From Escherichia coli (GTDB taxonomy: Bacteria > Pseudomonadota > Gammaproteobacteria > Enterobacterales > Enterobacteriaceae): a DNA stretch of 64,000 nt. Both the position numbers and the translations under genes were made by a program. The stretch lies in NCBI RefSeq assembly GCF_024223415.1, contig NZ_CP100500.1. One strand, written 5' to 3'. The notes below the pieces were generated by a model, which was given only the letters and a program-made list of their open reading frames with translations, had not been told where the DNA came from and did not search any database. This document shows positions 3,188 to 35,517 of this stretch, piece after piece (the first letter of the stretch is position 1; every line of letters starts with the position of its first letter).

Positions 3188-4006
3188 AAGGATAAATGGC
3201 GTTCTCTGTATTTATTCGCAATTATCTGTAGGACAAATATGGAGAGCTTGATGAGTCAGAGCTAAAACAGCAATTGATTAATAAACATGTTGATTTATTC
3301 AAGAAAATGGATGTATTTTAAATATTGATTCTTAATATAACCTAATCAATAGATTATCACGTGAGAGCTGCACATTATTGGAGGGGCAGGGGAAAACACC
3401 ATTTTGGGAACAATGCATCAGGTACTCTTACCACTGAAGCAAGATCATCCGGGCACCAGGTGGTGGTGCAGTGCTTTGGAAATGGTCCCCTCGGGGGAGT
3501 TGTCATTATTTTCTATGCTATTTGCTTATGATATTCATCAGGTGAATTTAATAAATTCCTAATTTGAAATATCCACTATTAAGCCAGTGTTTAACGACGT
3601 TAAGATGGCAATGTGCAGATCATGTTATCAGGGTGGGGCGGTAGCGTATATTCCTTATACAAATCATCATTCATTTCAATGATTGTTATTAAATTATTTA
3701 TTGTTGTGAATAAAAAGACATTATGAATATTGGTTTAACTTTGCATATCAGGTTTTTTATTACTCGCTGTAATGTACGAGCCTGTCGTGAATAACGTCCA
3801 GAACCCATCCGTTGCGTTTGTGATTATTTTGTTGACTAAACAGACGCCCGTTTCTCTGAAGTAAAATCCCAGACTAAATCATCACATAACCATGACATTT
3901 TCTGATATTCCCCGGTAACGCCAGTTGTCGACTCACTTATTTCATCCGCCCGACATGTTGTACATGCAATATGTGCGGATTATTATTCATTTTCACGGAG
4001 GTTGCT

Positions 4007-6115
4007 ATGTCAACCGGATTACGTTTCACGCTGGAAGTGGACGGCCTGCCACCGGACGCGTTTGCGGTGGTCTCCTTTCATCTGAACCAGTCACTCTCTT
4101 CACTTTTTTCCCTCGACCTTTCTCTGGTCAGTCAGCAGTTTCTTTCCCTTGAATTTGCGCAGGTGCTGGACAAAATGGCCTACCTGACGGTATGGCAGGG
4201 CGATGACGTACAGCGCCGGGTGAAAGGTGTGGTGACCTGGTTTGAACTGGGGGAGAACGACAAAAACCAGATGCTGTACAGCATGAAGGTGTGCCCGCCG
4301 CTGTGGCGCACAGGGCTGCGCCAGAACTTCCGTATCTTCCAGAATGAGGACATCGAAAGCATCCTCGCTACGATATTGCAGGAAAACGGGGTGACCGAGT
4401 GGAGTCCGCTGTTCAGCGAGCCGCATCCTTCCCGTGAGTTTTGTGTCCAGTACGGCGAAACCGATTACGATTTCCTGTGCCGGATGGCGGCGGAGGAAGG
4501 CATCTTCTTTTATGAGGAGCACGCGCAAAAAAGTACCGACCAAAGCCTGGTCCTGTGCGATACCGTGCGTTATCTGCCGGAGTCCTTTGAGATCCCCTGG
4601 AATCCGAACACCCGTACCGAGGTAAGCACCCTCTGCATCAGCCAGTTTCGCTACAGCGCACAAATCCGCCCTTCTTCCGTGGTGACCAAAGACTACACCT
4701 TTAAACGCCCCGGCTGGGCCGGACGTTTTGACCAGGAAGGCCAGCACCAGGATTACCAGCGCACACAGTATGAAGTGTATGACTATCCCGGACGTTTCAA
4801 GGGCGCCCACGGGCAGAACTTTGCCCGCTGGCAGATGGACGGCTGGCGAAACAACGCAGAAGTGGCGCGCGGAACAAGCCGTTCGCCGGAGATATGGCCG
4901 GGACGGCGAATTGTGCTGACGGGGCATCCGCAGGCGAACCTGAACCGGGAATGGCAGGTGGTGGCAAGTGAACTGCACGGTGAGCAGCCGCAGGCGGTGC
5001 CGGGACGCAGTGGTTCAGGTACCTCGCTGAATAACCACTTTGCGGTAATCCCGGCAGACCGGACATGGCGGCCACAGCCGTTGCTGAAACCGCTGGTGGA
5101 CGGCCCGCAGAGCGCCGTCGTGACGGGACCGGCAGGCGAGGAAATCTTCTGTGATGAACATGGCCGCGTGCGGGTGAAATTTAACTGGGACCGCTATAAC
5201 CCGTCAAACCAGGACAGTTCATGCTGGATCCGTGTGGCACAGGCGTGGGCAGGCACCGGATTCGGTAACCTTGCGATACCGCGCGTGGGTCAGGAGGTGA
5301 TTGTGGACTTCCTCAACGGCGATCCGGACCAGCCGATCATTATGGGGCGCACCTACCACCAGGAAAACCGCACACCCGGCAGCCTGCCGGGAACAAAGAC
5401 GCAGATGACCATTCGTTCGAAAACCTATAAGGGCAGCGGGTTTAATGAACTGAAGTTTGACGATGCGACAGGGAAAGAACAGGTCTACATCCACGCGCAG
5501 AAGAACATGAACACCGAGGTGCTGAATAACCGCACCACGGATGTGATAAACAACCATGCTGAGACCATTGGCAACAATCAGATGATTGCGGTTACCAACA
5601 ATCAGATACAGACGGTGGGCGTTAACCAGATAGAGACGGTGGGCAGTAACCAGATCATTAACGTGGGTTCTGTTCAGGTGGAAACGATTGGACTTGTTCG
5701 TGCGCTGACCGTGGGCGTGGCGTACCAGACGACGGTAGGTGGCATTATGAACACTTCGGTGGCTCTGATGCAGTCCTCGCAGATCGGTTTGCATAAATCT
5801 TTGAGGGTCGGGCTGGGTTATGACGTCAAAGTCGGAAATAACGTTACCTTCACCGTTGGTAAAACGAAAAAGGATGATACCGGGCAGACCGCGATTTACT
5901 CCGCCGGTGAGCATCTGGAGCTCTGCTGTGGTAAGGCAAAGCTGGTGCTGACAAAGGACGGTCAAATTTTTCTCAACGGCACAAAAATTCATTTGCAGGG
6001 TAAGGAGCAGGTTAATGGTGACTCACTGTTGATTAACTGGAACTGTGCAGCCTCGAAATCCCCACCGAAGACCCCTGATGAAAAGCAGGATACGCCGGAT
6101 ATGAGAGAGTACTGA
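4007..6115 (+). CDS. vgrG: Type VI secretion spike protein VgrG, 702 aa
   Basis: ORF 3971..6115; start set at ATG 4007 (MSTGLRFTLEVDGLPPDAF...) with GGAGG RBS at 3997-4001; gp27/gp5-like core, C-terminal beta-helix octapeptide repeats (NNQMIAVT/NNQIQTVG/VNQIETVG). Confidence 0.9.
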   Translation: MSTGLRFTLEVDGLPPDAFAVVSFHLNQSLSSLFSLDLSLVSQQFLSLEFAQVLDKMAYLTVWQGDDVQRRVKGVVTWFELGENDKNQMLYSMKVCPPLWRTGLRQNFRIFQNEDIESILATILQENGVTEWSPLFSEPHPSREFCVQYGETDYDFLCRMAAEEGIFFYEEHAQKSTDQSLVLCDTVRYLPESFEIPWNPNTRTEVSTLCISQFRYSAQIRPSSVVTKDYTFKRPGWAGRFDQEGQHQDYQRTQYEVYDYPGRFKGAHGQNFARWQMDGWRNNAEVARGTSRSPEIWPGRRIVLTGHPQANLNREWQVVASELHGEQPQAVPGRSGSGTSLNNHFAVIPADRTWRPQPLLKPLVDGPQSAVVTGPAGEEIFCDEHGRVRVKFNWDRYNPSNQDSSCWIRVAQAWAGTGFGNLAIPRVGQEVIVDFLNGDPDQPIIMGRTYHQENRTPGSLPGTKTQMTIRSKTYKGSGFNELKFDDATGKEQVYIHAQKNMNTEVLNNRTTDVINNHAETIGNNQMIAVTNNQIQTVGVNQIETVGSNQIINVGSVQVETIGLVRALTVGVAYQTTVGGIMNTSVALMQSSQIGLHKSLRVGLGYDVKVGNNVTFTVGKTKKDDTGQTAIYSAGEHLELCCGKAKLVLTKDGQIFLNGTKIHLQGKEQVNGDSLLINWNCAASKSPPKTPDEKQDTPDMREY

Positions 6116-6181
6116 TCCCGTACCTGTTCGGTATTCAGTAACAAACAAGCATTAAAAATAAACAGAAGAAGGAATTGAATC

Positions 6182-9100
6182 ATGAGCGGAAAACCAGCGG
6201 CGCGTCAGGGAGATATGACTCAGTATGGCGGTCCCATTGTCCAGGGTTCGGCAGGTGTAAGAATTGGCGCGCCCACCGGCGTGGCGTGCTCGGTGTGTCC
6301 GGGCGGGATGACCTCGGGCAACCCGGTAAATCCGCTGCTGGGGGCGAAGGTGCTGCCCGGCGAGACGGACCTTGCGCTGCCCGGCCCGCTGCCGTTCATT
6401 CTCTCCCGCACCTACAGCAGCTACCGGACGAAGACGCCTGCGCCGGTGGGGATTTTTGGCCCCGGCTGGAAAGCGCCTTCTGATATCCGCTTACAGCTAC
6501 ATGATGACGGACTGATACTCAACGACAACGGCGGGCGGAGCATTCACTTTGAGCCGCTGCTGCCGGGGGAGGCGGTGTACAGCCGCAGCGAGTCAATGTG
6601 GCTGGTGCGCGGTGGTAAGGCAGCGCAGCCGGACGGCCACACGCTGGCGCGGCTGTGGGGGGCGCTGCCGCCGGATATCCGGTTAAGCCCGCATCTTTAC
6701 CTGGCGACCAACAGCGCACAGGGGCCGTGGTGGATACTGGGGTGGTCAGAGCGGGTGCCGGGTGCTGAGGACGTACTGCCAGCGCCGCTGCCGCCGTACC
6801 GGGTGCTTACCGGGCTGGCAGACCGTTTCGGGCGGACGCTGACGTACCGGCGTGAGGCCGCAGGCGACCTGGCCGGGGAAATCACCGGCGTGACGGACGG
6901 TGCCGGGCGTGAGTTCCGTCTGGTACTGACCACACAGGCACAGCGGGCGGAAGAGGCCCGCACCTCTTCGCTATCTTCTTCTGACAGTTCCCGCCCTCTC
7001 TCAGCCTCAGCGTTCCCCGACACACTGCCCGGTACCGAATACGGCCCCGACAGGGGTATCCGTCTTTCAGCGGTGTGGCTGATGCACGACCCGGCATACC
7101 CGGAGAATCTGCCCGGTGCGCCACTGGCGCGGTACACGTATACGGAAGCCGGTGAACTGCTGGCGGTATATGACCGCAGCAATACGCAGGTGCGCGCTTT
7201 CACGTATGACGCGCAGCACCCGGGCCGGATGGTGGCGCACCGTTACGCGGGAAGGCCGGAGATGCGCTACCGCTACGACGATACCGGGCGGGTGGTGGAG
7301 CAGCTGAACCCGGCAGGCCTGAGTTACCGCTACCAGTATGAGCAGGACCGCATCACCGTCACGGATAGCCTGAACCGGCGTGAGGTGCTGCATACAGAAG
7401 GCGGGGCCGGGCTGAAGCGGGTGGTGAAAAAAGAACTGGCGGACGGCAGCGTCACGCACAGCGGGTATGACGCGGCAGGAAGGCTCACGGCGCAGACGGA
7501 CGCGGCGGGACGGCGGACAGAGTACGGTCTGAATGTGGTGTCCGGCGATATCACGGACATCACCACACCGGACGGGCGGGAGACGAAATTTTACTATAAC
7601 GACGGGAACCAGCTGACGGCGGTGGTGTCCCCGGACGGGCTGGAGAGCCGCCGGGCATATGATGAACCGGGCAGGCTGGTATCGGAGACATCGCGCAGCG
7701 GGGAGACAGTACGCTACCGCTACGATGATGCGTACAGTGAGTTACCGGCGACGACAACAGATGCGACGGGCAGCACCCGGCAGATGACCTGGAGCCGCTA
7801 CGGTCAGTTGCTGGCGTTCACCGACTGCTCGGGCTACCAGACCCGCTATGAATACGACCGCTTCGGCCAGATGACGGCGGTCCACCGCGAGGAAGGCATC
7901 AGCCTTTACCGCCGCTATGACAACCGTGGCCGGTTAATCTCGGTGAAAGACGCACAGGGCCATGAAACGCGGTATGAGTACAACGCCGCAGGCGACCTGA
8001 CTGCCGTCATTACCCCGGACGGCAACCGGAGCGAGACACAGTACGATGCGTGGGGAAAGGCGGTCAGCACCACGCAGGGCGGGCTGACGCGCAGTATGGA
8101 GTACGATGCTGCCGGACGTGTCATCAGCCTGACCAACGAGAACGGCAGCCGGAGTGAGTTTACCTACGATGCGCTGGACCGCCTGGTACAGCAGGGCGGC
8201 TTTGACGGGCGGACGCAGCGTTACCGTTATGACCTGACCGGAAAACTCACGCAGAGTGAAGATGAGGGGCTTGTCATCCTCTGGTACTACGATGAATCGG
8301 ACCGTATCACTCACCGCACGGTGAACGGCGAACCGGCAGAGCAGTGGCAGTATGATGGCCACGGCTGGCTGAGAGAAATCAGCCACCTGAGCGAAGGCCA
8401 CCGTGTTGCCGTCCACTATGGCTATGACGATAAAGGCCGCCTGACCGGCGAACGCCAGACGGTGGAGAACCCGGAGACGGGGGAACTGCTGTGGCAGCAT
8501 GAGACGAAACACGCATACAACGAGCAGGGGCTGGCAAACCGCGTCACGCCGGACAGCCTGCCGCCGGTGGAGTGGCTGACGTATGGCAGCGGTTACCTGG
8601 CGGGAATGAAGCTGGGCGGGACGCCGCTGGTCGAGTATACGCGGGACAGGCTGCACCGGGAGACGGTGCGCAGCTTCGGCAATAATGCATATGAACTGAC
8701 CAGCACTTACACCCCCGCAGGCCAGTTACAGAGCCAGCACCTGAACAGCCTGGTGTATGACCGTGACTACGGGTGGAATGACAACGGCGACCTGGTGCGC
8801 ATCAGCGGTCCGCGACAGACGCGGGAATACGGCTACAGCGCCACGGGCAGGCTGGAGAGTGTGCGCACCCTCGCACCGGACCTGGACATCCGCATCCCGT
8901 ATGCCACGGACCCGGCGGGCAACCGGCTGCCGGACCCGGAGCTGCACCCGGACAGTACACTCACAGTGTGGCCGGATAACCGAATCACCGAAGACGCGCA
9001 CTACCTGTACCGTTACGATGAATACGGCAGGCTGACGGAGAAGACGGACCGCATCCCGACGGGTGTGATACGGACGGACGACGAGCGGACCCACCACTAC

Positions 9101-10387
9101 CACTACGACAGCCAGCACCGCCTGGTGTTCTACACGCGGATACAGCATGAGGAGCCACTGGTCGAGAGCCGCTACCTCTACGACCCGCTGGGACGGCGAA
9201 TGGCAAAACGGGTCTGGCGGCGGGAGCGTGACCTGACGGGGTGGATGTCGCTGTCGCGTAAACCGGAGGAGACATGGTACGGGTGGGACGGCGACAGGCT
9301 GACGACGGTGCAGACTGACACCACACGTATCCAGACGGTCTACCAGCCGGGGAGCTTCACGCCGCTCATCCGTATCGAGACAGAGAACGGCGAACGGGAG
9401 AAAATGCAGCGCCGCAGCCTGGCGGAGAAGCTGCAGCAGGAAGGAAGTGAGGACGGTCACGGTGTGGTGTTCCCGGCTGAGCTGGTGAGGATGCTGGACA
9501 GGCTGGAGGAAGAAATCCGGGCAAACTGCGTGAGCAGTGAAAGCCGCCAGTGGCTTGCGCAGTGCGGGCTGACGGTGGAGCGGCTGGCGGCACAGATAGA
9601 GCCGGTTTATTTGCCTGAGCGAAAAATACATCTTTATCACTGTGACCACCGGGGCCTGCCGCTGGCGCTTATCAGTGAAGACGGCAATACGGCGTGGCGC
9701 GGGGAGTATGATGAATGGGGCAACCAGCTTAATGAAGAGAACCCGTATTACCTGCACCAGCCATACCGTCTGCCGGGGCAGCAGCATGATGAGGAATCAG
9801 GGCTGTACTATAACCGGAACCGGTACTATGACCCGCTACAGGGGAGGTATATTACACAAGACCCCATTGGGCTGGAGGGGGGATGGAACCTGTACCAATA
9901 TCCGCTGAATCCAGTGCAACACGTTGATCCATTAGGGCTTAGTACTATGATAATAGGTAACGGCCCCGTTCCTGATAATCCTTTTGGGCATGCTGCGGCG
10001 GCAAATCGATATGGATTAATGAGTTCGGGAACTGGGGATGAGATGGGAGCCTCTGTCTCTGATTATTTTAAAAAGATGCAACCCCGCAGAGATACCTGGA
10101 TTTGGATAATAGATACAACAGATGAAGAAGAACAATGTATGATGAATAAGGCAATAGACCTTAATAAAAAACTAAAAACTATTAACCTCGGGCCTCTTCC
10201 TGTTTTAAATAATTGTTTTAGCCGAACGAACATGATTTTTGAGGCGTGCGGGTTTAACAACCCCTCTATGAATACAAATGCGCCTATAAGCCTACAAGTG
10301 CTCGGTGAGCTTTATGGATATCAAAGATATATTATGCCTAAAGGTCCTTTCACTGGATTCCCATTTGAATTTCAAGAGGTAAAGTAA
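6182..10387 (+). CDS. rhsE: Full-length Rhs polymorphic toxin, 1401 aa: PAAR-like N-terminus, YD-repeat shell, DPLGL boundary motif, variable C-terminal domain
   Basis: N-terminus [23 protein letters not shown]...; many YD repeats ([17 protein letters not shown], ...); conserved core end ...[26 protein letters not shown]...VDPLGL at 9923-9940; symbol assigned by locus position (between yncH and H-rpt/pptA). Confidence 0.9.
9941..10387 (+). other. Rhs C-terminal variable (toxin) domain, 148 aa, family not recognised
   Basis: Begins immediately after DPLGL; abrupt drop in GC content relative to the rhs core; contains His and Cys residues (GHAAA, EEQCMM, NNCFS, EACGF) but no motif I can assign. 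Confidence 0.6.
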
Positions 10388-10786
10388 ATGGAAATGCTTG
10401 GGAAGATATTAGTGATAATTATTTCCATGATAATTATATCTTGTGATTATTATAATGCTGGCATGGACTATCAAGATAATATAGCCCTCGAGCAAGTCGT
10501 AACATGGGATTCTGATAATATATTCACACCTAATATCTTTGAACATAATGGAAGATGTTTTATGAAGAAAAATGAAACATGGATGTTATTAAATGGAGAT
10601 GCAACACCAAACATTAGAACAATGAGCAATAAGAAAATAGAATGCCTGGAGAAGAGTGAAGTAGAATGGGCTAGTAGGGTTTGCGACAGTATCACAGACA
10701 AGGAAAGGGAAAATCTGAAGGCATTAATATGTAGCAAACCAGCTAAATCAGTTAATACAGGCAAAAGACCAGCGTTAGGATATTGA
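10388..10786 (+). CDS. Putative Rhs immunity protein, 132 aa, predicted inner-membrane lipoprotein
   Basis: ATG directly follows the rhs TAA stop (10385-10387); N-terminus MEMLGKILVIIISMIIIS-C19-D20 = signal peptide plus lipobox-like IISC with Asp at +2; AT-rich like the toxin tip. Confidence 0.6.
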   Translation: MEMLGKILVIIISMIIISCDYYNAGMDYQDNIALEQVVTWDSDNIFTPNIFEHNGRCFMKKNETWMLLNGDATPNIRTMSNKKIECLEKSEVEWASRVCDSITDKERENLKALICSKPAKSVNTGKRPALGY

Positions 10787-10937
10787 AACCGGCACTGCAC
10801 TCTATCACTATTACAATATTCTGAGTGACTAGAGCAACTGCTCCGCCATCCGGGCTAGCAGTATGACGACGAATCCGAACTGCACTACAACTGGCACCGG
10901 TACTACAATCCGGGACAGGGACCAGGGAAAGATCACG
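10787..10937 (+). pseudogene. Vestigial orphan rhs core 3' fragment with in-frame stops
   Basis: Translation ...LRHPG*QYDDESELHYNWHRYYNPGQG aligns with the core end ...[27 protein letters not shown] of the upstream rhs (similarity also visible at DNA level); TGA and TAG stops in frame; homology ends at the intron boundary. Confidence 0.5.
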
Positions 10938-11424
10938 GTGTGCCGTAGGCACAAAGATGCAAAACGGGACGTTTTGCATGTAATAAGCATAAGCTTGTGA
11001 AGAGATGGTGGCAGGCCCACCGGGATCTGCTGTCGGAAGTCGGTCCCAAACAACCCCGGCTGCTGTGGTAAAGAGCCAAGGTAGTGAGCGCAGGGGGAAC
11101 GATCAGACGAGATCTGATCCTGTGTGAGATACAGTGAGATGAGTAAACCCGAACCTGTGTTGAAACGTCGTTAGTCCTAAGTGACATCAAAACCGGAGGT
11201 TTCGTGATACCGCCTGGATTAATTTACGGGTGAATTCCGAATGCTGCGTAAATGGTGTCCGGCGTATAGCAGGCATGACGCTGTATCAGGCTCTTTGCAG
11301 GAACTACGGGAACCAGTCGTCGCAATGTCAAGAGAGAAATACAAATAACCGAAATTATGAGTATGAGAGTATCGATGTGCGAAACCGGGGCAGAGCTGTT
11401 CGTAGTAGTGAGGAAGCGTTTGTA

Positions 11425-12725
11425 ATGAATGTGGAGCGAAGGGGCAACGTCGGGCAGTCTGCATCACAGCCCAACTGTAAACAGGAGGAGGCTGCGGGTG
11501 AACAGACAAAACCGTTTCAGGTCAGTAAATTGCATGTGGTGGAAGCGTACCGTCGGGTAAAGGCGAATGCCGGAGCTGCCGGAGTGGATAACCAGACGCT
11601 GAAAGATTTTGAGCGGGATCTGAAAGGAAATCTGTACAAAATCTGGAACAGGTTATCGTCGGGAAGCTGGATGCCGCCGCCAGTGCGTGCGGTGGAAATT
11701 CCGAAGAAGGATGGCAGTAAAAGGCTTTTAGGAATACCGACAGTAAGCGATCGAATAGCGCAGATGACGGTGCTGGTAACGTTTGAACCATTAGTGGAGC
11801 GTTATTTCCTGAATGATTCATACGGATACCGGCATGGAAAATCAGCGCTGGATGCAATAGCAGTTACCAGAAAACGTTGCTGGCAATACGACTGGTGTCT
11901 TGAGTTTGATATTAAAGGGTTATTCGATAATATCCCCCACGATTTATTACTCAGGGCAGTGGATAAACATTGCGCGGATAAATGGGTAAGACTGTATATT
12001 CGCAGGTGGCTGACAGCGCCGGTGCAGATGCCGGATGGAACACTGAAGGAAAGAAATAAAGGTACGCCACAGGGTGGAGTCATCAGTCCGGTACTGGCGA
12101 ATTTATTTCTGCACTATGTGTTTGATAAATGGCTGTCGTTACATTATCCGGAAATTCCCTGGTGTCGTTATGCAGATGATGGATTAATTCATTGTGGCAG
12201 TAAACAACAGGCAGAGGAATTACTGAATAAACTGGCAAAACGTTTTCAGGAATGTGGACTGGAATTACATCCGGAGAAAACGAAAATAGTTTACTGCAAA
12301 GACAGCTAACGACAGGCGAACCACGAAACAGTGCAGTTTGATTTTCTGGGTTATACGTTCAGGGCGAGAAGAGCACGTAATCAGCGAAGTGGAAATCTCT
12401 TTACGAGTTTCAGTCCGGCGGTGAGTAACAGTGCGCAGAAAGGCATGATCGAAAAACTCAGGAAACTGCGGCTCAGACGCAGGGTGGAGATGAGTCTCGA
12501 AGATATTGCGAAAAGGCTGAATCCGATGATATCGGGGTGGCTGAATTATTACGCGAAATACCACAAAGATATATTAATCTGACGCTGATTGCGTGGGCGA
12601 GAAAGAAATATAAAACCCTGCGGTATAGAAAGACGAAGGCGTGTCAGCTAATGGAAAGGCTGTCAAAAGAGAAGCCGGAGTTGTTTGCCCACTGGAATGC
12701 AGGACCGGAAAGCGCGTTTGCCTGA
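11425..12725 (+). pseudogene. Group II intron reverse transcriptase/maturase (IEP), disrupted by an in-frame TAA and a frameshift
   Basis: RT motifs (AGAAGVDNQTL..., GTPQGGVISPVLANLFL, RYADDGLI = YADD box) and X/maturase motifs (FDFLGYTF, ISGWLNYY); TAA at 12307-12309 interrupts the frame; C-terminal segment (12537..12725) is in a different frame; start could alternatively be the upstream ATG at 11230. Confidence 0.75.
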
Positions 12726-12728
12726 CGG

Positions 12729-12762
12729 GAGCCGTATGAAGCGAGAGTTTCACGTACGGTTC
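12729..12762 (+). ncRNA. Group II intron domain V (catalytic hairpin)
   Basis: gagccgtatgaagcgagagtttcacgtacggttc: 10-bp lower stem with AGC triad at positions 2-4, 2-nt bulge on the 3' strand, 4-bp upper stem, GNRA (GAGA) tetraloop; 4 nt after the IEP stop. Confidence 0.7.
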
Positions 12763-12945
12763 TGCGAGAGGCTGTCGGGGAGGTTCCGGTGGCCTACTCA
12801 CTTAACGCTGCTTTTTTGTACTAAATAATTCGCATTTTATGTTTAAAAATTGAGATATTCCCCATTACCTAAAGCTGTTTTTTATTGCTTATACATGATC
12901 AAATACTCCTTACATAATTAAGGAGAACAAAATGGAATTAAAAAA

Positions 12946-30926: not shown

Positions 30927-33900
30927 ATGGACGTCAGTCGCAGACAATTTTTTAAAATCTGCGCGGGCGGTATGGCTGGAACAACAGTAGCGGCATTGGG
31001 CTTTGCCCCGAAGCAAGCACTGGCTCAGGCGCGAAACTACAAATTATTACGCGCTAAAGAGATCCGTAACACCTGCACATACTGTTCCGTAGGTTGCGGG
31101 CTATTGATGTATAGCCTGGGTGATGGCGCAAAAAACGCCAGAGAAGCGATTTATCACATTGAAGGTGACCCGGATCATCCGGTAAGCCGTGGTGCGCTGT
31201 GCCCCAAAGGGGCCGGTTTGCTGGATTACGTCAACAGTGAAAACCGTCTGCGCTACCCGGAATATCGTGCGCCAGGTTCTGACAAATGGCAGCGCATTAG
31301 CTGGGAAGAAGCATTCTCCCGTATTGCGAAGCTGATGAAAGCTGACCGTGACGCTAACTTTATTGAAAAGAACGAGCAGGGTGTAACGGTAAACCGTTGG
31401 CTTTCTACCGGTATGCTGTGTGCCTCCGGTGCCAGCAACGAAACCGGGATGCTGACCCAGAAATTTGCCCGCTCCCTCGGGATGCTGGCGGTAGACAACC
31501 AGGCGCGCGTCTGACACGGACCAACGGTAGCAAGTCTTGCTCCAACATTTGGTCGCGGTGCGATGACCAACCACTGGGTGGATATCAAAAACGCTAACGT
31601 AGTGATGGTGATGGGCGGTAACGCTGCTGAAGCGCATCCCGTCGGTTTCCGCTGGGCGATGGAAGCGAAAGACAACAACGATGCAACCTTGATCGTTGTC
31701 GATCCCCGTTTTACGCGTACCGCTTCTGTGGCGGATATTTACGCACCTATTCGTTCCGGTACGGACATTACGTTCCTGTCTGGCGTTTTGCGCTACCTGA
31801 TCGAAAACAACAAAATCAACGCCGAATACGTTAAGCATTACACCAACGCCAGCCTGCTGGTGCGTGATGATTTTGCTTTCGAAGACGGTCTGTTCAGCGG
31901 CTACGACGCTGAAAAACGCCAGTACGATAAGTCGTCCTGGAACTATCAGTTCGATGAAAACGGCTATGCAAAACGCGATGAAACACTGACTCATCCGCGC
32001 TGTGTGTGGAACCTGCTGAAAGAGCACGTTTCCCGCTACACGCCGGACGTCGTTGAAAACATCTGCGGTACGCCAAAAGCCGACTTCCTGAAAGTGTGTG
32101 AAGTGCTGGCCTCCACCAGCGCACCGGATCGCACAACCACCTTCCTGTACGCGCTGGGCTGGACGCAGCACACCGTGGGTGCGCAGAACATCCGTACTAT
32201 GGCGATGATCCAGTTGCTACTCGGTAACATGGGTATGGCCGGTGGCGGCGTGAACGCATTGCGTGGTCACTCCAACATTCAGGGGCTGACTGACTTAGGC
32301 CTGCTCTCTACCAGCCTGCCAGGTTATCTGACGCTGCCGTCAGAAAAACAGGTTGATTTGCAGTCGTATCTGGAAGCGAACACGCCGAAAGCGACGCTGG
32401 CTGGTCAGGTGAACTACTGGAGCAACTATCCGAAGTTCTTCGTTAGCCTGATGAAATCTTTCTATGGCGATGCCGCGCAGAAAGAGAACAACTGGGGCTA
32501 TGACTGGCTGCCGAAGTGGGACCAGACCTACGACGTCATCAAGTATTTCAACATGATGGATGAAGGCAAAGTCACCGGTTATTTCTGCCAGGGCTTTAAC
32601 CCGGTTGCGTCCTTCCCGGACAAAAACAAAGTGGTGAGCTGCCTGAGCAAGCTGAAGTATATGGTGGTTATCGATCCGCTGGTGACTGAAACCTCTACCT
32701 TCTGGCAGAACCACGGCGAGTCGAACGATGTCGATCCGGCGTCTATTCAGACTGAAGTATTCCGTCTGCCTTCGACCTGCTTTGCTGAAGAAGATGGTTC
32801 TATCGCTAACTCCGGTCGCTGGTTGCAGTGGCACTGGAAAGGTCAGGACGCGCCGGGTGAAGCGCGTAACGACGGCGAAATTCTGGCGGGTATCTACCAT
32901 CATCTGCGCGAGTTGTACCAGGCCGAAGGTGGTAAAGGCGTAGAACCGCTGATGAAGATGAGCTGGAACTACAAGCAGCCGCACGAACCGCAATCTGACG
33001 AAGTAGCTAAAGAGAACAACGGCTATGCGCTGGAAGATCTCTATGATGCTAATGGCGTGCTGATTGCGAAGAAAGGTCAGTTGCTGAGTAGCTTTGCGCA
33101 TCTGCGTGATGACGGTACAACCGCATCTTCTTGCTGGATCTACACCGGTAGCTGGACAGAGCAGGGCAACCAGATGGCTAACCGCGATAACTCCGACCCG
33201 TCCGGTCTGGGGAATACGCTGGGATGGGCCTGGGCGTGGCCGCTCAACCGTCGCGTGCTGTACAACCGTGCTTCGGCGGATATCAACGGTAAACCGTGGG
33301 ATCCGAAACGGATGCTGATCCAGTGGAACGGCAGCAAGTGGACGGGTAACGATATTCCGGACTTCGGCAATGCCGCACCGGGTACGCCAACCGGGCCGTT
33401 TATCATGCAGCCGGAAGGGATGGGACGCCTGTTTGCCATCAACAAAATGGCGGAAGGTCCGTTCCCGGAACACTACGAGCCGATTGAAACGCCGCTGGGC
33501 ACTAACCCGCTGCATCCGAACGTGGTGTCTAACCCGGTTGTTCGTCTGTATGAACAAGACGCACTGCGGATGGGTAAAAAAGAGCAGTTCCCGTATGTGG
33601 GTACGACCTATCGTCTGACCGAGCACTTCCACACCTGGACCAAGCACGCATTGCTCAATGCAATTGCTCAGCCGGAACAGTTTGTGGAAATCAGCGAAAC
33701 GCTGGCGGCGGCGAAAGGCATTAATAATGGCGATCGTGTCACTGTCTCAAGCAAGCGTGGCTTTATCCGCGCGGTGGCTGTGGTAACGCGTCGTCTGAAA
33801 CCGCTGAATGTAAATGGTCAGCAGGTTGAAACGGTGGGTATTCCAATCCACTGGGGCTTTGAGGGTGTCGCGCGTAAAGGTTATATCGCTAACACTCTGA

Positions 33901-33974
33901 CGCCGAATGTCGGTGATGCAAACTCGCAAACGCCGGAATATAAAGCGTTCTTAGTCAACATCGAGAAGGCGTAA
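30927..33974 (+). CDS. fdnG: Formate dehydrogenase-N alpha subunit, selenocysteine-containing (UGA at 31512-31514 decoded as Sec), 1015 aa
   Basis: Tat signal MDVSRRQFFKICAGGMAGTTVAA; the two ORF-track pieces (30927..31514 and 31563..33974) are in the same frame, separated only by the in-frame TGA. Confidence 0.95.
31512..31555 (+). promoter_or_regulatory. Selenocysteine recoding site: UGA plus downstream SECIS-like structured region
   Basis: In-frame TGA inside an otherwise continuous conserved ORF; GC-rich region immediately 3' (exact SECIS fold not computed). Confidence 0.55.
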
Positions 33975-33986
33975 GGGGGCGAACAG

Positions 33987-34871
33987 ATGGCTATGGAAAC
34001 GCAGGACATTATCAAAAGGTCCGCAACTAACTCCATCACGCCGCCTTCTCAGGTGCGTGATTACAAAGCAGAAGTCGCAAAACTTATCGACGTTTCCACC
34101 TGTATCGGCTGTAAAGCCTGTCAGGTGGCGTGTTCGGAGTGGAACGACATCCGTGATGAAGTGGGGCACTGCGTCGGGGTTTACGATAACCCCGCCGATC
34201 TGAGCGCCAAGTCCTGGACGGTGATGCGCTTTAGCGAAACCGAACAGAACGGCAAGCTGGAGTGGCTGATCCGTAAAGACGGCTGTATGCACTGTGAAGA
34301 TCCAGGCTGCCTGAAGGCGTGCCCGTCTGCTGGTGCAATCATTCAGTACGCTAACGGGATTGTCGATTTCCAGTCGGAAAACTGCATCGGCTGTGGTTAC
34401 TGCATTGCCGGGTGTCCGTTTAATATTCCGCGCCTCAACAAAGAGGATAACCGGGTATATAAATGCACGCTCTGCGTCGATCGCGTCAGCGTCGGCCAGG
34501 AACCGGCTTGTGTGAAAACCTGTCCGACCGGGGCTATCCACTTCGGCACCAAGAAGGAGATGCTGGAGCTGGCGGAACAGCGCGTGGCGAAACTGAAAGC
34601 GCGTGGTTACGAACATGCTGGCGTCTACAACCCGGAAGGGGTCGGTGGTACGCACGTTATGTACGTGCTGCATCACGCCGATCAGCCGGAGCTGTATCAC
34701 GGTCTGCCGAAAGATCCGAAGATCGACACCTCGGTAAGCCTGTGGAAAGGCGCGTTGAAACCGCTGGCAGCGGCTGGCTTTATTGCCACTTTTGCAGGGT
34801 TGATTTTCCATTACATCGGTATTGGCCCGAATAAGGAAGTGGACGATGACGAGGAGGATCATCATGAGTAA
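33987..34871 (+). CDS. fdnH: Formate dehydrogenase-N beta subunit (4Fe-4S), 294 aa
   Basis: Multiple CxxCxxCxxxCP ferredoxin motifs; C-terminal TM anchor. Confidence 0.95.
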
Positions 34872-35517
34872 GTCGAAAATGATTGTGCGCACCAAATTTA
34901 TTGATCGCGCCTGTCACTGGACCGTGGTGATTTGCTTCTTCCTGGTGGCGCTGTCCGGGATTTCGTTCTTCTTCCCGACGCTGCAATGGCTGACGCAAAC
35001 CTTCGGTACGCCGCAGATGGGACGCATTTTGCACCCATTCTTCGGCATTGCGATTTTCGTCGCACTGATGTTTATGTTTGTGCGTTTTGTGCATCACAAC
35101 ATCCCGGATAAGAAAGATATTCCGTGGCTGTTGAACATTGTCGAAGTATTGAAAGGCAATGAGCACAAAGTGGCGGATGTTGGTAAGTACAACGCCGGGC
35201 AAAAGATGATGTTCTGGTCAATCATGAGCATGATTTTCGTGCTGCTGGTGACCGGGGTGATTATCTGGCGTCCGTACTTTGCGCAGTACTTCCCGATGCA
35301 GGTTGTCCGTTATAGCCTGCTGATTCACGCGGCTGCGGGTATCATCCTGATCCACGCCATCCTGATCCATATGTATATGGCATTCTGGGTGAAAGGATCG
35401 ATTAAAGGGATGATCGAAGGGAAGGTGAGCCGTCGCTGGGCGAAGAAACATCATCCACGCTGGTATCGTGAAATCGAGAAGGCAGAAGCGAAAAAAGAGA
35501 GTGAAGAAGGGATATAA
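34864..35517 (+). CDS. fdnI: Formate dehydrogenase-N gamma subunit (cytochrome b556), 217 aa
   Basis: Start refined to ATG 34864 ([19 protein letters not shown]...), overlapping the fdnH 3' end; heme-binding membrane protein. Confidence 0.93.

Follow-up and report, generated by a model that had tools for sequence, protein, structure and literature searches.

The SECIS elements of the three E. coli formate dehydrogenases are the best-characterised bacterial SECIS elements (PMC13188914). In E. coli, the element has been described as an apical hairpin of 17 nt that lies 11 nt from the UGA, with the bases U17, G23 and U24 (PMC8659212). In the more general bSECIS model (Zhang and Gladyshev, summarised in PMC13188914), the apical loop is 3 to 9 nt long and the upper stem 4 to 16 bp, a G is found within the first two loop positions and is usually followed by G or U, the distance from the UGA to the apical loop is 16 to 37 nt, and the minimum free energy (MFE) is -7.5 kcal/mol or lower. 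Sec-tRNA(Sec) is delivered by SelB bound to the hairpin, in competition with release factor 2 (RF2) (PMC13188914), and both SelB binding and SelB-dependent Sec insertion have been published for E. coli formate dehydrogenase SECIS elements (PMC13188914, PMC7590224, PMC4513850). For fdnG itself, PMC13188914 cites a paper by Berg et al. (1991, J Biol Chem 266:22380) whose title announces evidence that the opal codon of the K-12 gene encodes selenocysteine. The Sec codon and SECIS of fdnG are already known and belong to textbook biology.

The window (the whole 64-kb stretch of DNA that was analysed) is E. coli chromosome and contains an fdnG gene that closely resembles that of K-12 (b1474). The 66 nt around the TGA, from 6 upstream to 57 downstream, are identical in the two, which also share the position of the Sec codon, the fdnGHI gene order and the flanking genes, yddG upstream and yddM with adhP downstream. 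The window gene differs from that of K-12 at 30 nt and 4 aa (D249N, F342L, G493D and A666S, with the window residue first and the K-12 residue last), and none of these differences is in or near the SECIS. The aerobic paralogue fdoG (b3894, formate dehydrogenase-O) is a different gene in a different place, the fdoGHI-fdhE locus, and in K-12 its TGA is also codon 196. The fdoG and fdnG genes are 74.8% identical in nucleotide sequence and their proteins are 77% identical; the longest run shared by the two genes is an identical 71-nt block, codons 195-218, which includes the UGA and the whole hairpin.

The fdhF gene encodes a 715-aa cytoplasmic enzyme with Sec at codon 140. Its SECIS (RF01988, SECIS_2), on which more experiments have been done than on any other in bacteria, has the same architecture as that of fdnG, consisting of the UGA, an 11-nt spacer, the bulged U17 and the loop G23-U24, and the UGACACGG start and a GGU...GUCU...CC frame are common to both. 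The apical hairpin is one base longer in fdnG (18 nt) than in fdhF (17 nt), the fdnG loop is GUC closed by an A-U pair whereas that of fdhF is GGUC, and the lower-helix sequences differ. When the fdhF-type family (SECIS_2) was tried for the fdnG element, it scored 28.8 bits against a threshold of 70, and the element was assigned instead to the fdnG/fdoG-type family.

We put at about 98% the probability that the UGA at codon 196 of this fdnG is decoded as selenocysteine with the aid of a downstream SECIS, in the nitrate-inducible, Tat-exported formate dehydrogenase-N. The basis of this reading is homology that continues across the TGA, a match to a SECIS model, covariation, constraint at the nucleotide level and the presence of the sel genes in the species. 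No observation made here runs counter to it.

The fdnG reading frame across codon 196

The features of the gene and its operon are as follows:

30927..33974, + strand: fdnG, formate dehydrogenase-N alpha, 1015 aa, Sec codon 196 (translation, TIGR01553, 1kqf_A, RefSeq)
31512..31514, + strand: UGA read as selenocysteine, Sec196 (sole internal stop; position 195 of TIGR01553; residue 196 of 1kqf_A)
30936..30956, + strand: putative Tat export motif SRRQFFK, FdnG codons 4-10 (read from the translation)
33987..34871, + strand: fdnH, beta (iron-sulfur) subunit of formate dehydrogenase-N, operon context (TIGR01582, 482 bits; RefSeq)
34864..35517, + strand: fdnI, gamma (cytochrome b) subunit of formate dehydrogenase-N, operon context (NF007558, 486.5 bits; RefSeq)

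Translation of 30927-33974 on the + strand gave 1016 codons ending in TAA, with a single in-frame internal stop, the TGA at 31512-31514 (codon 196), so that the frame runs open to either side of it. The ORF list contains a same-frame pair at this place, 30927..31514 (195 aa, with an ATG start) and 31563..33974 (803 aa), as the earlier note had reported; the translation bears this out, with the correction that the start of the 803-aa ORF is merely conventional. It is listed from Met213 (ATG 31563) because an ORF caller takes the first ATG, and 31515-31562, the 16 codons that precede this ATG, lie inside the open frame. Since the frame is open from 31515, the true downstream piece is 819 codons. 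Comparison with the paralogue and with other species indicated that these 16 codons are kept as coding sequence.

The two pieces were found to be parts of one protein. The upstream ORF matched positions 1-194 of TIGR01553, an NCBIfam equivalog profile with a cutoff of 814 bits, at 279.5 bits, and the downstream ORF matched positions 196-1009 at 1318.8 bits, so that the one profile position left between them, 195, falls on the TGA. When codon 196 was entered as X, Pfam domains were identified at residues 44-104 (Fe4S4), 107-589 (Molybdopterin) and 893-1008 (Molydop_binding), and the Molybdopterin match means that one Pfam domain spans codon 196. PDB 1KQF chain A, the major subunit (1015 aa) of the nitrate-inducible enzyme of E. 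coli, aligned end to end with FdnG residues 1-323 and has a non-standard residue at 196. In Desulfovibrio formate dehydrogenase chains named 'selenocysteine-containing', including 6sdr_A, a non-standard residue is likewise aligned to the FdnG TGA. The residues around Sec196 in FdnG read ARV-U-HGPTVASLAPTFGR. The proposal of the earlier note that a continuous formate dehydrogenase alpha subunit surrounds the TGA is thus borne out by TIGR01553, by the Pfam Molybdopterin domain and by 1kqf_A.

The genomic context is that of formate dehydrogenase-N. Profile searches placed fdnHI directly 3' of fdnG, giving an operon in which the beta and gamma subunits are present; the NF007558 match covers residues 15-231 of a 231-aa ORF with a TTG start, and the RefSeq start of fdnI corresponds to window position 34864. 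We take SRRQFFK to be the Tat signal of FdnG from established knowledge of this enzyme. In RefSeq, a genome that is 100% identical to the window over 30700-34100 carries a single 3048-nt fdnG CDS across the TGA; yddG flanks it on one side, and on the other come fdnH, fdnI, yddM and adhP, an order identical to that of K-12. If TGA is taken as a stop, gene calling would yield fragments of 195 and 803 aa, or a pseudogene, where there should be a selenoenzyme of 1015 aa, and the active-site residue would be lost. The warning in the earlier note of an annotation trap within known biology was apt in that a naive caller splits the gene, and RefSeq already has one fdnG CDS; the significance of the observation is limited to annotation, where RefSeq is already correct.

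Conservation of the in-frame TGA and of the sel genes

All but one of the 5426 complete E. coli genomes contained the fdnG region, and in five of them it was 100% identical to the window. Of 5433 E. coli records that matched the 59-nt element containing the TGA and hairpin, 5432 did so at an identity of 99% or more. The median genome had the element in two places, the number expected because fdnG and fdoG share its sequence.

A scan of one genome per species was made with a pattern in which only the UGA and the first two positions of the codons for U-H-G-P-T-V-A-x-L-A-P-T-F-G-R-G-A-M were specified, the third positions and one whole codon being left as N, and a gapless alignment was built on the results. 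The scan yielded 121 sites, 61 of them distinct, in gamma-, beta- and alpha-proteobacteria and in a Geobacter relative. At the 121 sites, the open frame extended upstream over a median of 212 codons and downstream over about 820. A TGA flanked by open frames at this position is not a product of chance, given its conservation in E. coli and its recurrence at the 121 sites.

These results bear on two alternatives to selenocysteine decoding. The first is that the TGA is a genuine stop: fdnG would then be split or a pseudogene and yield a 195-aa fragment, while the 803-aa ORF would either go untranslated or have its own start at ATG 31563. A naive ORF call looks exactly like this, and the idea is partly true in that RF2 competes at a Sec-UGA: the SECIS of fdhF gave recoding of 30-40% in a reporter (PMC4513850), so that some termination at 31512 is expected and some ribosomes probably do end there. 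As a full account of the locus, however, a genuine stop is very improbable, because the TGA, together with the frames on either side of it, is kept throughout the E. coli genomes (5425 of 5426) and in distant proteobacteria, because a single Pfam domain crosses the TGA and in the solved structure one chain of 1015 aa carries a modified residue at 196, and because the stretch between the TGA and ATG 31563 is conserved as coding sequence.

The second alternative is that a cysteine codon, TGC or TGT, was turned into TGA by an error in sequencing or assembly. In its favour, molybdopterin formate dehydrogenases do have homologues of the cysteine type, but the near-identity of the 59-nt element in the 5432 independently assembled records and the occurrence of TGA in both fdnG and fdoG of K-12 leave this explanation with a vanishingly small chance of being correct.

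At the species level, 5425 of the 5426 complete genomes of E. coli contained selA-selB, 5424 the gene for tRNA-Sec (selC) and 5425 selD. None of the four genes lies in the 64-kb window, where a search for tRNA genes, including selC, found none; the K-12 map leads one to expect this. It is nearly certain, judging by their presence across the species, that this strain has selA, selB, selC and selD.

The SECIS hairpin downstream of the UGA

The elements of the hairpin are as follows:

31509..31567, + strand: bacterial SECIS, Rfam SECIS_3 (RF01989), full-length match to model positions 1-59 (84.3 bits)
31526..31543, + strand: apical SelB-binding hairpin GGUAGCAAGUCUUGCUCC (MFE fold and covariation; SelB binding from the literature)
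31514..31524, + strand: 5' arm of the lower helix, including the last base of the UGA (MFE structure of 31512-31560)
31549..31559, + strand: 3' arm of the lower helix (MFE structure of 31512-31560)

The SECIS_3 match exceeds the gathering score of 63, with E = 1.4e-18 over the whole window. In the MFE fold, a hairpin at 31514-31559 lies directly downstream of the in-frame TGA (codon 196 of 1016), and an internal loop separates its lower helix from the apical hairpin. The apical hairpin comprises 7 bp with U31528 bulged out, and its loop, G31534-U31535-C31536, is 3 nt long, or 5 nt with the closing A-U pair open. The spacer between the UGA and the apical hairpin is 11 nt (31515-31525), and the distance from the UGA to the apical loop is 19 nt (31515-31533). 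With the U of the UGA numbered 1, U31528 is U17, G31534 is G23 and U31535 is U24.

The values found for fdnG, namely a 3-nt loop with G-U, a 7-bp stem, a distance of 19 nt and an MFE of -14.6 kcal/mol, all fall within the ranges of the bSECIS model. The fdnG element also has the features of the minimal SECIS of the fdhF paradigm: the spacer of 11 nt, a U17 that bulges out, and G23 and U24 in the loop. The SECIS-type structure that the earlier note had expected just downstream of the TGA is therefore there, with 84.3 bits against 63 and an apical helix that covaries.

On this basis, a sequence of events can be proposed for fdnG. The mRNA directly 3' of the UGA folds into the SECIS hairpin, and the apical stem-loop at 31526-31543 presents the bulged U and the loop G-U at a fixed distance from the UGA. 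[quoted passage not shown] The ribosome would have to melt the lower helix, as it needs to read the codons there. With the UGA in the A site, the tethered SelB would then deliver Sec-tRNA(Sec) in competition with RF2, as published work describes, and translation would proceed through the remaining 819 codons. The selenol of the inserted residue would become a ligand of the molybdenum cofactor, again according to published work.

Covariation, synonymous-site constraint and folding energy

In the cross-species alignment, the apical helix was paired in 100% of cells, with all 7 pairs present in all 61 distinct homologues. Sliding the partners by 1 to 3 columns reduced the apical pairing to 25-49%. 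Compensatory changes were found in two of the 7 apical pairs, 21/33 (GC in 46, AU in 13 and GU in 2 of the 61 distinct homologues) and 24/30 (AU in 40, CG in 16 and GC in 5), and all four of the columns involved are third codon positions. The number of double-change cells was 34, compared to 8.0 +/- 2.4 in shuffled alignments, and none of 500 shuffles reached the observed value. The free loop codon was AGT at 73 and GGT at 48 of the 121 sites; since it is solely one or the other, the loop G-U is invariant.

Constraint was also evident between the paralogues. Synonymous differences between fdnG and fdoG numbered zero in 20 codons of the shared block, whereas elsewhere 42% of the identical codons capable of a synonymous difference had one, and the block at codons 195-218 holds the sole run of 20 such codons that lacks a synonymous difference.

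Folding energy gave a different picture. The MFE was -14.6 kcal/mol for 31512-31560 and -11.9 kcal/mol for 31515-31555. Compared to dinucleotide shuffles, the MFE had a z-score of -1.45, and 19 of 200 shuffles folded equally well. When HGPTVASLAPTFGRGA was recoded synonymously 5000 times, weighted by fdnG codon usage, 85% of the recodings were at least as stable as the native sequence (mean -17.9 kcal/mol). Folding energy was accordingly ruled out as a discriminating test, and the stem-loop stability test put forward in the earlier note is not decisive: folding did recover the hairpin shape, the spacing and the conserved bases, but stability by itself is weak evidence. The evidence for a SECIS is its specific shape, spacing and conserved bases, and not its stability. 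For bacterial SECIS elements, a covariance model, a fixed spacing with conserved bases, and synonymous sites that are frozen or covary are far better guides than folding energy.

The statistically ordinary stability of the hairpin could be taken to favour a third alternative, in which the UGA is suppressed independently of a SECIS, for example by a near-cognate Trp or Cys tRNA, and the hairpin is incidental. An incidental hairpin would have to coincide with a match to a curated SECIS model, compensatory changes at synonymous sites, an invariant loop G-U, frozen synonymous sites in the paralogue and sel machinery that is conserved in the species, and we therefore regard such suppression as highly improbable. 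The three alternatives combined account for only a very small probability, and SECIS-directed selenocysteine decoding is the reading retained here.

The lower helix behaved differently from the apical helix. Across species, its pairing amounted to 84-86% of cells, and no double changes were found in any of its pairs among the 61 distinct homologues, in either of two registers. On the E. coli sequence, the register of the Rfam consensus gave -3.3 kcal/mol, compared to -14.6 for the MFE register. The Rfam consensus register leaves A-G and A-C mismatches in the lower helix of the window; across species neither register was more than 86% paired, and the arms listed above are a provisional assignment. 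It is conceivable, although on balance we think it unlikely, that the native hairpin has been selected to be meltable and refoldable rather than maximally stable and that, in addition, the lower helix is paired in one register in the A/U-rich enterobacterial version and in another in the G+C-rich versions from beta-proteobacteria and Pseudomonas, on which the Rfam consensus is centred. The identity of the element is unchanged whichever way hairpin stability and lower-helix register are read.

The block shared by fdnG and fdoG

The part of fdnG (formate dehydrogenase-N alpha) that surrounds the selenocysteine UGA was compared with its paralogue fdoG (formate dehydrogenase-O), using the K-12 sequence L002:
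window 31509-31580, compared with K-12 fdoG at L002:4773-7823 (fdoG on the minus strand)

It was found that the two genes share a 71-nt block of perfect identity spanning the UGA and the SECIS, the RNA hairpin element on its 3′ side, compared to 75% identity over the whole genes. Purifying selection on the RNA explains this identity, although local gene conversion between the two paralogues may also have produced such a block.

When the peptide encoded by the SECIS (31512-31562) was recoded synonymously, 85% of the 5000 recodings folded at least as stably as the native sequence; in other words, most sequences encoding this peptide form a more stable fold than the native SECIS does. The covarying third positions of the SECIS are A/U in the native window sequence and G/C in G+C-rich genomes.

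Outside the window, in the set of 5426 complete E. coli genomes, the 59-nt SECIS matched at 10830 places, 7 of them on plasmid-classed records; 2 matches of selD also lay on such records. For each of fdnG, selAB, and selD, no match was found in 1 of the 5426 genomes, a count made per gene that may refer to different genomes.

The region upstream of fdnG

Expression of fdnGHI is anaerobic and nitrate-induced, and the FNR consensus is TTGAT-N4-ATCAA. Reading by eye, we found TTGATttcgCGCAA at window 30849-30862 (plus strand), roughly 70 nt before the ATG start codon of fdnG; it resembles an FNR half-palindrome and is a candidate FNR site. This candidate fits the known control of fdnGHI.

The type VI secretion cargo island and the group II intron

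An orphan type VI secretion cargo island occupies window 3971-10786 (plus strand), and a group II intron is present at 11007-12802 (plus strand):
about 4007-6115, plus strand, VgrG tip protein
6182-10387, plus strand, RHS element core protein, 1401 aa
10388-10786, plus strand, hypothetical ORF of 132 aa that abuts the RHS gene
11007-11122, plus strand, Rfam group-II-D1D4-2, 93.9 bits
12727-12802, plus strand, Intron_gpII domain V/VI (Rfam), 62.8 bits
12946-14067, ISAs1 transposase

The 132-aa ORF is placed where an immunity protein would be expected and is, by its position, a putative one. The intron is flanked by the RHS core gene on one side and the ISAs1 transposase on the other. In NZ_CP084096.1, a genome with 99.8% identity, the annotation marks the ltrA gene (reverse transcriptase/maturase) inside the intron as a pseudogene that has a frameshift and an internal stop.

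The porin gene and its neighbors

One porin gene is intact in the window:
28455-29555, minus strand, OmpN/OmpC-like porin ORF, 366 aa

In NZ_CP084096.1 the annotation of this porin carries no pseudogene flag. Strain SCU-316, whose fdnG is 100% identical to that of the window, has it annotated as a pseudogene with a frameshift. Strain-to-strain variation also affects the adjoining leucine-rich-repeat (EspR1/YddK-like) genes, which lie at about 25708-28291.
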